Part shown: one piece after another, positions 11,734 to 16,055 of the stretch
Numbering within the stretch: position 1 is the stretch's first letter
How the letters are laid out: every line of letters begins with the position of its first letter
Source of the DNA: a virus
Taxonomy: Duplodnaviria > Caudoviricetes
Length of the DNA stretch: 64,000 nt
IMG/VR virus record: IMGVR_UViG_3300031992_000039
Coordinates: 32,001-96,000 of that record
Strand: one strand, 5' to 3'
Translations under genes and position numbers: made by a program
Notes under the pieces: generated by a model
Database searches by the model: none
What the model was told of the DNA's origin: nothing
What the model saw: only the letters and a program-made list of their open reading frames with translations

Positions 11734-11806
11734 TGGAGGCGGGCACCGACTCGAACGGCATCTAAGGATAATGAGTCCTTTGTGTTACCAGTTACACTAA
11801 CCCGCT
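11734..11806 (-). tRNA. tRNA-Met/Ile2(CAT), atypical
   Basis: AAGGA-CTCATTA-TCCTT anticodon arm, TTCGAGT T-loop, encoded CCA; irregular acceptor and T stems; U at position 37. Confidence 0.7.
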
Positions 11807-11810
11807 ATAT

Positions 11811-12092
11811 TTAATCTCTACAGGCTTTTAAAATGCGCTCAGCCCAATTGGGCTCTTCAGCTAAAATATAATCCCATTCAATAGGAGCCTCGTCCAAATT
11901 TACTTCTCCAGAATAATCGTAAAATCTTTCACTATCACCCACAATAAAATGCCCATCAATAGGAAGGTAGTATAATTTTAAATATGGGAAACGCATTAAA
12001 AGGATTTGCGCGAACCAATAACAATTTCCAGATGTCCAGCGCGCATTGGTATCTTTAAAGCGCCGATTTATAAATTCAACGACCTTATTCAT
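11811..12092 (-). CDS. Hypothetical protein (possible papain-like Cys/His/Asp fold)
   Basis: GNCYWFA...GHF...YDYSG. Confidence 0.55.
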   Translation of the reverse strand: MNKVVEFINRRFKDTNARWTSGNCYWFAQILLMRFPYLKLYYLPIDGHFIVGDSERFYDYSGEVNLDEAPIEWDYILAEEPNWAERILKACRD

Positions 12093-12288
12093 CATAAAGG
12101 AATCTCTCACGAATATGCTTATACAGCCCAGGCATCGCACCCTCTTCAACCATTATATCATAAGAAGGTTCCTCGTTTTGTTCAAATGTTCCATAGGCAT
12201 CTACAATATAAACATATCCAGTCTCAACTTCATTACCAATCTTAAAGGAAACAACATCATTTTCCTTATATTTAGGCTTTCCAATCAT
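12085..12288 (-). CDS. Small hypothetical SH3-like protein
   Basis: PKYKENDVVSF...G...SYDIMV...KHI. Confidence 0.6.
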   Translation of the reverse strand: MIGKPKYKENDVVSFKIGNEVETGYVYIVDAYGTFEQNEEPSYDIMVEEGAMPGLYKHIRERFLYDE

Positions 12289-12312
12289 CTTAAATCTGCC
12301 CTTTCTTATTGT

Positions 12313-12389
12313 TGGCACTCCGAAAGGGGCTCGAACCCTTAACCCACGACTTAGAAGGTCGTTGCTCTATCCTACTGAGCTATCGGAGC
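12313..12389 (-). tRNA. tRNA-Arg(TCT)
   Basis: Cloverleaf; ACGAC-CTTCTAA-GTCGT; CCA end. Confidence 0.95.
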
Positions 12390-12393
12390 GAAT

Positions 12394-12479
12394 TGGTGCG
12401 GTTGGAGGGATTTGAACCCTCAAGGATTTCTCCCGACGGATTTTAAGTCCGTTGTGTATGCCTGCTCCACCACAACCGC
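12394..12479 (-). tRNA. tRNA-Leu(TAA)
   Basis: ACGGA-CTTAAAA-TCCGT; long variable arm; ACCA end. Confidence 0.95.
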
Positions 12480-12485
12480 ATTTAA

Positions 12486-12568
12486 AAGTCAGTATCTGCC
12501 TACAAGTTACTCTTCTCTTTTGTCGTTTTAAAAGGTACTCTTCGCTTCAATTCGGCAAATACTGACTT
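12486..12568 (-). ncRNA. Candidate small structured RNA
   Basis: 15-bp terminal stem AAGTCAGTATTTGCC/GGCAGATACTGACTT enclosing two GAAGAGTA repeats. Confidence 0.45.
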
Positions 12569-12771
12569 AATTTGGTACCAGTGACGCAACCTTTCCGGAC
12601 TAAGCTATTAACGGACGGTCTGATCCGACATTAATTTTAAGGGATAATGTAAACCTCCAGTAACCATCCACTTACTGGCGTGCCAACATCCCCTATGCTG
12701 GGAGGAGTCGTTTACTTCTTCAAAAGGGTTTCTCTCCTTTTGGATACGGCGCGGGGACTACCGCGCAGTTT

Positions 12772-12829
12772 TACTCCAGCCGGACTCGAACCGACGACCT
12801 CAAGCTCTCGCCATCTGAGCTATGGAGTA
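12772..12829 (-). ncRNA. Anticodon-less tRNA-like element
   Basis: Acceptor TACTCCA/TGGAGTA, D arm GCTC..GAGC, T arm GTCGG-TTCGAGT-CCGGC; only 8 nt between D and T arms. Confidence 0.75.
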
Positions 12830-12831
12830 AT

Positions 12832-13280
12832 AATTTTGCCTCGCACTCTTAAATTAATTAGAATTACAGGGAACGTGGCTCTCCTGCGTATTCTTTTTTG
12901 TTGCCCAAGGCGTCCCACTCGCTTACTCTAGTCCTACCTTATCATCAGATTCAAAGCATTTTATTGGCGAAATAAATACTTTTTCCTAGAACCTTGGCAA
13001 TAGCAGCAACCTCACAATAAGCTGAAATCTGCTTGGCCCGAAGAGCGCCACTCTTGAGCGGCCTTTATCTACACATACACGGTAGAAAGGTTTTTGAATC
13101 CTTAAATTCGCTTTAGTCTGTTCCACGGCTTCCTTGCTGCCTCTCGGCGAGCTATAGCCGAAATTTCACGCGTAACAGGTACTGTTGTATTAGAGTTCGC
13201 TTCCCTAACTGGGGGGCATCCAGTAGACCTCTCTTCTACTTCTTCCGCGGTAAGTAGAAGTTGATATTGCGAATTTTCTT
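12832..13280 (-). ncRNA. Candidate large structured ncRNA
   Basis: No credible ORF; likely sigmaA promoter at 13303-13329; long-range stems AAATTCGC/GCGAATTT, CTTCTACTT/AAGTAGAAG and TTGCCAAGG/CCTTGGGCAA. Confidence 0.5.
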
Positions 13281-13403
13281 TTTCCTTTTCTTATGTATAT
13301 ATTATATAAGAAATTTAAAACTTTTTCAAATTTTTAAATACCTTTCTCATATATCCGCAAATATTGAGCTTTCACCGTCAGTCGCGCGAACTTCGGAGGG
13401 CAT

Positions 13404-13479
13404 TGGAGCCAATGAACGGAATCGAACCGTTGACCTGATACTTACAAGGCAACTGCTCTGCCTGCTGAGCTACATTGGC
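13404..13479 (-). tRNA. tRNA-Thr(TGT)
   Basis: Cloverleaf; CTTGTAA loop; CCA end. Confidence 0.92.
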
Positions 13480-14129: not shown

Positions 14130-14203
14130 TGGAGCAGGAAACGGGACTTGAACCCGCAATGTCGCCTTGGAGGGGCGAAGTGTTACCATTACACTATTCC
14201 TGC
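14130..14203 (-). tRNA. tRNA-Gly(TCC)
   Basis: TCGCC-CCTCCAA-GGCGA (C33 instead of U33); TCCA end. Confidence 0.9.
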
Positions 14204-14325
14204 AATTAAGATGCGGACTGATGAATCTCCTACCACAGCCGCGAGGCCCATATTATATTATACTGCACCTCGTATCTGATAGATGCGACACCGTCGTGTT
14301 GGGAGAATGGCCATCCGTGCAGTTC

Positions 14326-14399
14326 TGGCGGGGGATGGTGGTATCGATCCACCACCGTGACAGTCAAAGTGTCATGTGCTACCACTACACCAATCCCCT
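14326..14399 (-). tRNA. tRNA-Gln(TTG)
   Basis: TGACA-CTTTGAC-TGTCA; GCCA end; T-loop starts ATCG. Confidence 0.88.
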
Positions 14400-14457
14400 A
14401 TATCTTCTATTATTAAGCAGAAAAATAATAATATGATTCTATAAAATTGAACCTCAA

Positions 14458-14512
14458 AATTCGAACCGCGAGTATTTTTAACTGCGCCTTAGGCCTCTTG
14501 GCTACACCGCAA
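14458..14512 (-). pseudogene. Degenerate tRNA remnant
   Basis: GCGGTGTAGCCAAGAGGCCTAAGGCG 5'/D-arm and GGTTCGAAT T-loop; no 3' acceptor strand. Confidence 0.55.
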
Positions 14513-14516
14513 TAAT

Positions 14517-14969
14517 TTATGTTAGACAAGTTATACACTCACCGGGAGATATTTGCATATGCACCCAAGCTTCTAGTTGGTCGTAAATACACTCTTCTGA
14601 ACTATTCCAAAAATTCGTACACCCTCCAAAAGTCATTACTGAGGTAGGCTTATCCGTAACCTGAAACACATAAACAGGTTTCCCAATTCCAAAAGCATAT
14701 CCCTGCTCCCAATTAGTGCCGGCTGTACTCTCTCGTCCAGTTGATATAACTACCATCATATCACAATTTTTTATTTGATCTATATCGGTCTTAAATACTT
14801 TAAGTGCCCATAGTTCTTGGGTCATATCCCAAGCATTAGGGACCTTAAAATCAAAGGGACAATATACTATCAATCCCTTTTTACGAAGAAAGGCCGCGAT
14901 ATTCTTCATTCGTGTCCTATCATTTGAATCACAAGAGCCCGCGAGGTATACCTTACCAGTTCTCATCAT
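14517..14969 (-). CDS. Nucleoside 2-deoxyribosyltransferase-family protein
   Basis: VYLAG, D..QIKNCD, GTNWEQGYA, KPVY. Confidence 0.8.
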   Translation of the reverse strand: MMRTGKVYLAGSCDSNDRTRMKNIAAFLRKKGLIVYCPFDFKVPNAWDMTQELWALKVFKTDIDQIKNCDMMVVISTGRESTAGTNWEQGYAFGIGKPVYVFQVTDKPTSVMTFGGCTNFWNSSEECIYDQLEAWVHMQISPGECITCLT

Positions 14970-15147
14970 CTTCTTCTCCCTCAAAGAAATTAAATCCACA
15001 AATGGGACATTCATTAAGAAGTTCGTGCTTAAAATCGCATTTATATATGGGCTCCCAGCATTCGGGACATTCAAAGAATTCCTCTTCCCAATCAACAAAG
15101 GCGCCGTAGTTTTCCTCTACATACTTTGCAGCTTCTCCCCAATTCAT
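14953..15147 (-). CDS. Small Zn-finger protein
   Basis: CPECWE...CPICG; follows sigmaA promoter at 15172-15200. Confidence 0.7.
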   Translation of the reverse strand: MNWGEAAKYVEENYGAFVDWEEEFFECPECWEPIYKCDFKHELLNECPICGFNFFEGEEDDENW

Positions 15148-15244
15148 TTTTATCCCTCACTTTCTATATAAAGTATACCAAAAATTTTAGGAAAAATCAA
15201 ATTTATAATCATCTTTGTTAAAGTTCTACTATAAAGATTAAATG

Positions 15245-15330
15245 TGTAGACGGTGGGATTTGAATCCACGAATGCTCATCACATCATCTGTTTTCAAGAC
15301 AGACGCCATAGACCTCTCGGACACGTCTCC
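15245..15330 (-). tRNA. tRNA-Ser(TGA), imperfect
   Basis: TCTGT-CTTGAAA-ACAGA; long variable arm; acceptor mismatch at pair 2; no G73 or CCA. Confidence 0.75.
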
Positions 15331-15334
15331 ATGA

Positions 15335-15846
15335 AAAACAGCGGTAACCGCCAATAAGTGTAACCCGCTGCTGATCCGGTCATCACCCCACACCAGTACA
15401 CTGGGATGCATCTTCTAGATCTTTTCGCTCTTACTCTCGCTCGTCAATTGCGATGCGGGAAGCGACGGTTGTATGCGAATGAAGTTAGTTAATTTCTAGC
15501 GGCCGCTGATATCTTCCTTTCATGCCGCATTTAGACAGCAGCTACCTGTCCCCAGCTAATGGCTCGTTTCGTTACAATGACCAGGCTCCGAGCCATTTCC
15601 CACCTGTAACTTCATTCGCGTGCGGGTCTGGTTTTAGCACCCCGCATGATCGGCCTCAGCAAATTCCTACCGACTTTCCTGCCTAATTAGCAGGTCTAGT
15701 TGCACTTAATAGTCTACCGGAAGTTGATCGAGTTCCCGGAGGTGGCGGACTCACCTTTGCGTGGGAGTTTGTGTCTATATAGGCACTTGGGCGGTTTACT
15801 CGAACACAAGTTACTTGCAAACTGTGTTCTAAGATTGCTCCCACAA
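15335..15846 (-). ncRNA. Candidate large structured ncRNA(s)
   Basis: GC-rich and ORF-free; perfect 13-bp GCGAATGAAGTTA/TAACTTCATTCGC; ATGGCTCG/CGAGCCAT; GTGGGAG/CTCCCAC. Confidence 0.55.
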
Positions 15847-15847
15847 A

Positions 15848-15941
15848 TGGCGGAAGTGGCAGGGTTCGAACCTGCAAAGTGGTGACGTCAAACCACAGGG
15901 ATTTAGAATCCCCCGCCTTTAACCTATTTGGCTACACTTCC
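15848..15941 (-). tRNA. Amber suppressor tRNA (anticodon CTA), Ser-type body
   Basis: GGAAGTG/CACTTCC acceptor, G73-CCA, GGGGA-TTCTAAA-TCCCT anticodon arm, long variable arm GTGGT..ACCAC. Confidence 0.88.
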
Positions 15942-15979
15942 ATAACAGCCTTGGTCTTTGTTGGTCGAGGCGGTAAGAT

Positions 15980-16055
15980 TGGTGCGCCCTCCGGGGCTCG
16001 AACCCGGGGCACGCGGATTAAAAGTCCGCTGCTCTACCACCTGAGCTAAGGGCGC
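15980..16055 (-). tRNA. tRNA-Lys(TTT)
   Basis: GCGGA-CTTTTAA-TCCGC; ACCA end. Confidence 0.95.

Follow-up and report, generated by a model that had tools for sequence, protein, structure and literature searches.

A hypervariable island of tRNA genes and non-coding RNA in a sheep-gut phage, with a putative new large RNA of the ROOL/GOLLD kind

The DNA analysed here (the window) is a stretch of 64,000 nucleotides (nt) from a virus of the Caudoviricetes, IMG/VR record IMGVR_UViG_3300031992_000039. It corresponds to bases 32001-96000 of a 111,327-bp virus genome with direct terminal repeats, which has a GC content of 0.37 and in which open reading frames (ORFs) of at least 100 aa span 91% of the sequence with the standard code. 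Between positions 11734 and 16055 of the window lies an island of 4.3 kb with ten tRNA genes, all on the minus strand, on which ARAGORN and the Rfam tRNA model agree; outside it, no further tRNA genes are found in the 111,327-bp genome. Interspersed with the tRNA genes are three ORF-free, GC-rich blocks, called here RNA A (517 nt), RNA B (343 nt) and RNA C (813 nt), about 1.7 kb in total. The sequencing runs that contain the island are sheep-gut metagenomes, and the locus is a hypervariable island of tRNA genes and non-coding RNA of a sheep-gut phage. An earlier reading of the letters alone (the sequence-only reading) had counted nine co-oriented tRNAs, at least three aberrant tRNA-like elements and more than 1.5 kb of GC-rich, ORF-free spacer. 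The co-orientation holds, the three tRNA-like elements are present (12771-12829, 14018-14124 and ~14450-14512), and the blocks have a GC content of 0.44-0.50 versus 0.37 for the genome. The count of tRNA genes had to be raised to ten, including a Ser-type amber suppressor, and the impression of a wholly non-coding island was mistaken, as four small protein genes are interleaved.

Relatives were taken from metagenome assemblies in IMG/VR, ENA and Logan, of which at least two carry a bovine label. They were reached through homologues of three proteins: the deoxyribosyltransferase encoded in the island, the neighbouring ClpP-like protease and a 289-aa protein upstream. Contigs are designated by L numbers; L028 and L025 derive from one sample and one phage, of which L028 is the upstream half. 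The large RNAs and tRNA-like elements of the island are as follows.

15331-15847, minus strand: RNA A candidate, 517 nt, GC 0.50, no ORF
15339-15353, minus strand: terminator-like hairpin with a U-run, at the 3' end of RNA A
~14450-14512, minus strand: decayed tRNA remnant, its 5' part like the intact tRNA-Gln 3' of the deoxyribosyltransferase gene in L020, L022 and L014
14018-14124, minus strand: tRNA-like element whose acceptor, D and T arms fold, with an expanded anticodon loop of ~40 nt that contains an internal hairpin
13674-14016, minus strand: RNA B, 343 nt, GC 0.44, ORF-free, with tRNA or tRNA-like genes on both sides
13301-13329, minus strand: promoter of RNA C, TTGAAA-17-TATAAT (11/12), conserved in L020 and L025
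12480-13292, minus strand: RNA C, a multi-domain structured RNA of ~813 nt, GC 0.45, no ORF, abutting tRNA-Leu
13100-13278, minus strand: D1 domain of RNA C, 179 nt, eight helices, also in L020, L022, L025 and L042/L058 (two copies), and weakly in L015
12838-12901, minus strand: optional 64-nt hairpin module of RNA C, in L025 and not in L020
12771-12829, minus strand: anticodon-less tRNA-like element situated in the RNA C linker; acceptor, D and T arms are present (Rfam tRNA model RF00005, 40.5 bits against a threshold of 29, lax filters)

On the minus strand, RNA C runs from its promoter through D1, a second domain (D2), the optional hairpin and the tRNA-like linker to a 3' domain of ~290 nt, which stops one base ahead of tRNA-Leu. 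The second domain includes invariant runs of 57 and 71 nt. Block C is carried by two contigs, L025 and L020, to which it is 0.91 and 0.89 identical, respectively, without the three-base periodicity of codons, whereas identity in the flanking genes of these contigs is 0.58-0.81 over all positions and 0.45-0.69 at third codon positions. Compensatory changes affect 7 of the 119 predicted pairs in the 5' half, which 1 of 500 shuffles reached, and 10 of the 99 predicted pairs in the 3' half including the tRNA-like element, which none of 500 shuffles reached; controls with slid partners gave 0-2 in each half. RNA C can be considered functional because it is conserved far above the flanking genes and shows compensatory substitutions, its folding energies alone being unimpressive. 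It is certainly a real structured RNA, and a previously undescribed one.

The D1 domain can be followed into further contigs. With four sequences, that of L022 included, 97.3% of the cells are paired and 14 of the 46 pairs have changed on both sides, versus 4.6 +/- 1.6 in shuffles (0 of 500 reaching the observed count) and 0-2 in slid controls. With seven sequences, the changed pairs amount to 33 of 46 and the paired cells to 94.6%, versus 69.9% after shuffling, in an alignment that was fitted to the model and is hence biased toward it. Covariation across related phages, which the sequence-only reading had proposed as a check, is thus found above shuffles for both RNA C and D1, next to the conservation (0.98) of RNA B.

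The arrangement of the domains varies among the relatives. A profile search revealed diverged pieces of RNA C in permuted order within a 1.3-kb spacer of L022, where the start of the 3' domain comes before D1. In L042/L058, two tandem copies of D1 were found by a D1-seeded motif scan in a 650-nt promoter-driven RNA upstream of tRNA-Met, and the D1 covariance model gave a weak full-length match in L015 (29 bits), downstream of a promoter. The surroundings of the latter (L015:1960-2286) comprise the promoter, the weak D1-like domain, a DUF3800-XI RNA (Rfam, 49 bits, above threshold) and then, directly, tRNA-Gly.

Searches for more copies were carried out on several scales. The D1 motif pattern matched 19 metagenome loci and 10 species-genome loci, the sole true D1 among them being that of L058, whose scores are identical to those of L042; the remaining loci, in metagenomes and species genomes, were discarded as chance or coding matches. 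Since the scan of 185,579 species genomes gave chance matches only, the RNA C family seems, as far as sequence tells, to be limited to these gut phages. Exact-pattern searches gave 0 matches in IMG/VR for two conserved RNA C 21-23-mers and 0 matches in JGI metagenomes for one 19-mer. The relatives gathered through the 289-aa protein, ClpP and the deoxyribosyltransferase homologues P0122, P0124, P0127, P0135, P0137 and P0149 contained no more copies of RNA A, B or C, and in 50,697 phage records, blastn with the island as query matched tRNAs only. The D1 model found no match in five IMG/VR records of relatives, the L015 one also being missed, so this search was insensitive.

The tRNA-like linker of RNA C does not form a full cloverleaf: 8 nt (UUGAGGUC) replace the anticodon arm and the variable loop, and the element cannot decode because they occupy the place of the anticodon arm. 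Its acceptor and T stems covary (helices 1 and 3 of the test on the 3' half of RNA C), and it is therefore a selected structure and not a broken tRNA. The element at 14018-14124 lacks a seven-nt anticodon loop on a 5-bp stem and is called by neither ARAGORN nor Rfam. It is a clean 114-nt insertion with respect to L025, and so lineage-specific; a similar tRNA-like element with an expanded anticodon region is present in L022. A model of the RNA C linker further detected, at positions 5962-6023 of L022, a second, unrelated anticodon-less element, in which a D arm, a 9-nt linker and a T arm sit on a 14-bp acceptor-like stem. It is located between tRNA-Lys and a small Cys-rich ORF, a slot that holds the suppressor tRNA, RNA A and tRNA-Ser in the window. 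With two unrelated anticodon-less examples, in the window and in L022, this clade repeatedly shows tRNA shapes that lack the decoding arm. At 7977-8112 of L022, a tRNA-Leu(UAA) gene escapes both ARAGORN and Rfam; its anticodon loop is interrupted between positions 32 and 33 by 51 extra nt, too few for a group I intron.

Mimicry of the acceptor, T and D arms, with the anticodon arm replaced, is known from bacterial Y RNAs (YrlA) and from tmRNA. The L022 element on its 14-bp stem resembles such an elbow module. In the window, the YrlA model (RF02553) reaches 22.3 bits versus a threshold of 69, and solely over the true tRNA-Arg and tRNA-Leu.

RNA B is 0.98 identical in L025 except for a 17-nt hairpin indel, which would disrupt any reading frame, and is likely a structured RNA. 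RNA A contains a perfect 13-bp long-range stem, never reached in 100 shuffles. It belongs to a 774-nt segment (15978-15205) that the window has in addition with respect to L028 and that consists of the suppressor tRNA, block A and tRNA-Ser. RNA A as a candidate RNA gene is plausible, and possible at this stage. Two other stretches, 14204-14325 and 13480-13595, are neither conserved nor exceptionally stable when folded (z = -0.4 and +0.3, respectively), and were set aside as ordinary spacer.

The island is a mosaic of indels, it holds one decayed tRNA remnant, and GIY-YIG endonuclease genes occur in the island of relatives. These features would suit an origin of the blocks as debris (decayed tRNA genes, intron remnants or homing-endonuclease scars) that seems conserved because the island was recently exchanged between phages, and so would the 98% identity of RNA B to L025, above everything around it, and the orphan state of RNA A. 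The compensatory substitutions in RNA C and D1, however, require selection on pairing, and the identities differ (0.98 for RNA B, 0.91 for RNA C against L025, 0.89 for RNA C against L020), and therefore do not result from a single recent transfer. Moreover, the Rfam tRNA model finds no remnants inside RNA A, B or C, bar the tRNA-like element with its intact arms. Such an origin is disfavoured for RNA C and very unlikely for the blocks taken together.

ROOL and GOLLD, which assemble into RNA-only cages, rank with the largest non-coding RNAs of bacteria and phages. In the literature, both are described as large RNAs, their function unknown, that lie close to phage tRNA islands (10.1101/2024.12.08.627333; PMC5737381), GOLLD having a variable 5' region, a conserved 3' region and, at times, a tRNA in the linker (10.1101/2024.12.08.627333). 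The link to these RNAs made by the sequence-only reading was apt, in that sister phages carry a true ROOL in the same island, with 268-275 bits in L014, L015, L030 and L033 (same Rfam library), and the window phage matches neither family. The Rfam scan that it had likewise suggested finds the tRNAs, and nothing else in the island at gathering threshold; blocks A, B and C, each scanned alone, match no family at E<=10. The ROOL model (RF03087, gathering score 99.1 bits) has no match at E<=10 in the whole genome or in the isolated blocks, and neither has the GOLLD model (RF02032, gathering score 150 bits for the conserved 3' region), for which 38 candidates were scored.

RNA C shares with ROOL, a large, ornate RNA (~580 nt) known from phages and prophages of the rumen and gut and sited near tRNA islands (PMC5737381), its genomic setting, since it lies in the only tRNA island of its phage. 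In L015, ROOL stands behind a promoter of the same consensus as that of RNA C, the two being 87% identical. Unlike ROOL, RNA C is longer, has permutable domains and holds a tRNA-like element. GOLLD, like RNA C, measures ~800 nt and lies near phage tRNAs. Its two-part build may be comparable to that of RNA C, in which the tRNA-like linker joins a 5' part to a 3' part that is highly conserved. The linker element of RNA C differs in having no anticodon arm, and no sequence homology to GOLLD was found. On these grounds, RNA C can be placed as a putative new family of the ROOL/GOLLD kind, a member of neither, built of shuffleable domains. Other long ORF-free stretches occur in the clade. One of 740 nt directly follows ROOL (L030:6849-7592, also in L032 and L033), is 97% identical among the three contigs and matches no Rfam family at gathering threshold. 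Another, of 1.6 kb (L017:2334-3958), lies between tRNA-Gly and tRNA-Lys in a syntenic relative, matches no Rfam family and is unlike RNA A, B and C except for the promoter motif.

The reading preferred here, to which a probability of roughly 0.6 is given, is that the island consists of ten working tRNAs and large structured RNAs, and that RNA C, a large phage RNA not described before, occupies the ROOL/GOLLD niche, is processed by tRNA enzymes and does a ROOL/GOLLD-type job. Several phage promoters (16305, 15200 and 13329) would give rise to precursors in which tRNAs punctuate the large RNAs, RNA C being transcribed from its own promoter together with tRNA-Leu and tRNA-Arg as one precursor. 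RNase P and RNase Z would release both the tRNAs and the large RNAs, and the 3' end of RNA C would most likely be made by the RNase P cut at tRNA-Leu. The tRNA-like element may then act as a second RNase P/RNase Z site, splitting RNA C into a 5' part of ~460 nt and a 3' part of ~290 nt, or it may stay in the linker as a tRNA elbow, like the tRNAs in some GOLLD RNAs. RNAs A and B, likewise bounded by tRNA or tRNA-like genes, may be released in the same way. Given that RNA C fills the niche held by ROOL in sister phages, it would most likely be a scaffold RNA of the ROOL/GOLLD type, abundant, protein-independent and produced during lytic growth, that acts on translation or on the tRNA apparatus. 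Two sheep-gut metatranscriptome runs contain 0.54-0.59 of the sampled words of the island as assembled contigs, with DNA carry-over being possible.

A precedent for this kind of processing is offered by MALAT1 and MEN-beta, long non-coding RNAs in which a tRNA-shaped element (mascRNA) is cut by RNase P and RNase Z and sets the ends of the long RNA. RNA C may be compared with them in that a tRNA-shaped element is embedded in a long RNA; they differ from it as eukaryotic nuclear RNAs, and the Rfam mascRNA model touches the true tRNA-Leu here, weakly, at 21 bits.

The same layout could also be obtained if the blocks were long transcribed spacers or leaders of tRNA operons, conserved because they govern how the neighbouring tRNAs are transcribed, in which order they are processed or how stable they are, and without a function as free RNAs. 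All three blocks abut tRNA genes, RNA C lies between a promoter and tRNA-Leu/tRNA-Arg with no terminator-like site between it and tRNA-Leu, and the terminator-like hairpin of RNA A, just ahead of tRNA-Ser, is a possible attenuator. Yet 813 nt with eight or more helices and invariant runs of 50-70 nt far exceed any known tRNA leader, D1 is found in other arrangements ahead of different tRNAs, and the same island of relatives holds ROOL as a free-standing RNA. A leader role without free RNAs is thus quite unlikely.

Several points weigh against the preferred reading of RNA C as a processed RNA with a ROOL/GOLLD-type job, and of the island as a carrier of large RNAs. Full-length sequences number three for RNA C and two for RNA B. 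The folding energy of the whole block is modest for RNA C (z = -2.1 versus shuffles), just z = -1.6 for RNA A and z = -0.8 for RNA B. Neither blastn nor nhmmer nor pattern scans found a homologue of RNA A, and the near-identity of RNA B could reflect recent recombination instead of selection. The proposed processing by RNase P and RNase Z follows from tRNA-like shape, and the analogy with ROOL and GOLLD from context and architecture. Lastly, L015 has ROOL plus the weak D1-like match, so ROOL and D1 are not strictly exclusive.

A bolder version of the preferred reading is tentative and somewhat doubtful: RNA C, and perhaps RNAs A and B, may represent new classes of giant, ornate RNAs in phages that can functionally stand in for ROOL and GOLLD and vice versa. 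They would be modular scaffolds that include a tRNA elbow and are produced in large amounts alongside the phage tRNAs, and they might self-assemble or dock onto the tRNA or ribosome machinery. If true, the exchange of ROOL for RNA C that nature has made inside a single phage clade would be the first comparative handle on the function of these RNAs. In the clade of close phages described here, the tRNA island holds ROOL in some members and, in others, an RNA of like size that is unrelated to it. The island adds at least one family to the large RNAs, for which a D1 covariance model is ready, and raises the questions of excision by RNase P and RNase Z, of oligomerisation and of mutual replaceability with ROOL. 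It also tempers the fashionable view that every phage tRNA island is an anti-defence device.

For this island, the sequence-only reading had proposed a layered counter-defence of replacement tRNAs, tRNA-like decoys, repair by a ligase and a kinase, and a ribosome-rescue factor, in which the large RNAs would participate. The two genes concerned by the repair are the following.

4641-5867, minus strand: RNA ligase with an N-terminal OB domain and a nucleotidyltransferase domain, Rnl5 type
3474-3935, minus strand: P-loop kinase (AAA_33/KTI12), 153 aa

Phage tRNAs can neutralise tRNA-targeting defences (PMC11464382, PMC11555353), and tRNA-Lys(UUU) is among the tRNAs carried. The ligase and the kinase lie 6-8 kb from the island, on the same strand, and are kept in relatives, and the clade contains tRNA-like elements more than once. 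Some defences cut the tails or other parts of tRNAs (PMC12851939, PMC13056530), and an anticodon-less mimic could in principle titrate them. The parts named do not all fit, however. The ligase was correctly located but is not of the Rnl2 type; its best solved relative is the Naegleria gruberi RNA ligase (E 3e-35), and it is a nick-sealing Rnl5-type enzyme, outside the T4-type Rnl1/Rnl2 group. The PNK-like kinase is indeed a P-loop kinase on the same strand, with a weak likeness to the kinase domain of Clostridium thermocellum Pnkp (CthPnkp, E 4e-4). According to Pfam, neither the kinase ORF nor the ligase ORF has a phosphatase or a cyclic-phosphodiesterase domain, and relatives retain both genes whatever RNAs they carry. 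The ArfA-like peptide could not be recovered, since ArfA (PF03889) has no match at E<=10 in six frames of the whole genome, with an E. coli control above the cut-off.

The decoy role fares no better. The conserved mimic at 12771-12829 is not a decoy for anticodon nucleases of the PrrC, RloC, VapC or PARIS type, because it has no anticodon loop for them to cut; of the other two mimics, one is a decayed remnant and the other a lineage-specific insertion. An anticodon-less mimic may conceivably engage enzymes that read the acceptor end or the elbow. Antisense complementarity between the RNAs and the phage tRNAs, as expected of a sponge, was rejected, the longest matches (8-9 nt) equalling shuffle values, and codon use accounts for the tRNA set. 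The proposal is thus partly supported: the ligase/kinase pair stands, while ArfA, the Rnl2 type and the decoy role do not. A role in evading tRNA-targeting immunity is conceivable, but nothing here joins the parts into one system, and a layered counter-defence is unlikely.

With the tRNA clusters of T5 and T4, the locus has in common clustered phage tRNAs, small ORFs and homing-endonuclease genes; the same strand also encodes an RNA ligase and a protein like polynucleotide kinase. It differs from the Pnk-Rnl repair pair of T4 by its Rnl5/Naegleria-like ligase; the kinase match is weak, and its ORF shows no Pfam phosphatase domain. Judging from blastn of the 50,697 phage records, T4 and T5 contain nothing comparable to the large structured RNAs.

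The ten tRNA genes, each called by ARAGORN and Rfam, are given below in the order of transcription.

15980-16055, minus strand: tRNA-Lys(UUU)
15848-15941, minus strand: amber-suppressor tRNA(CUA) with a Ser-type (class-II) body, long variable arm, G73 and encoded CCA
15244-15330, minus strand: tRNA-Ser(UGA)
14326-14399, minus strand: tRNA-Gln(UUG)
14130-14203, minus strand: tRNA-Gly(UCC)
13596-13673, minus strand: tRNA-Asn(GUU)
13404-13479, minus strand: tRNA-Thr(UGU), missing in L025 along with spacer 13480-13595
12394-12479, minus strand: tRNA-Leu(UAA), immediately 3' of RNA C
12313-12389, minus strand: tRNA-Arg(UCU)
11734-11806, minus strand: tRNA-Met(CAU), followed by a terminator-like hairpin (11716-11733)

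In the long ORFs, AAA, CAA, AGA and GGA are the top codons of their families, and TTA is a close second for Leu. The tRNA set, mostly with U34 and reading the favoured A-ending codons, fits plain codon supply for an AT-rich phage. The suppressor tRNA(CUA), which ARAGORN labelled as Pyl, was examined separately. Recoding of TAG was rejected as its cause, as 10 of 141 long ORFs end in TAG and ORF coverage is already 91% with the standard code. Hidden ORFs in blocks A, B and C, with TAG read as Ser, were rejected too, the frames thereby opened merely crossing tRNAs. Scans for this tRNA elsewhere gave one unrelated tRNA (in L041) and then 0 matches.

The island and its upstream border further contain the following protein genes and transcription signals.

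16277-16305, minus strand: promoter-like site, TTGAAT-17-TATAAT, upstream of the 62-aa ORF and the first tRNAs
16065-16253, minus strand: hydrophobic membrane-peptide ORF, 62 aa, without Pfam family, conserved in L028
15172-15200, minus strand: promoter of the clade-wide consensus type, upstream of the Zn-ribbon-like ORF and the deoxyribosyltransferase gene
14953-15147, minus strand: Cys-rich (Zn-ribbon-like) ORF, 64 aa
14517-14972, minus strand: nucleoside 2-deoxyribosyltransferase gene (PF05014)
11811-12294, minus strand: two small genes, for a 69-aa ORF (12085-12294) and a YunG-like protein, PF24591 (11811-12092)

An A/T-rich promoter consensus of ~47 nt (TTGAAA-17-TATAAT) is common to the clade; it occurs at 13289-13334 and 15154-15204 of the window, at L015:4642-4688 and at many sites in relatives, where it precedes RNA C, ROOL and many protein genes. 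No tmRNA is found in the window by ARAGORN or Rfam. Genes for tmRNA called by ARAGORN do lie inside the tRNA islands of two jumbo-phage contigs of 332 and 394 kb (L012:3605-3964 and L013:3910-4268), which were reached via the deoxyribosyltransferase and are unrelated to the window phage. In another relative, a group I intron (Rfam, 54.9 bits; L026:10174-10361) overlaps the 3' end of an HNH-like ORF.

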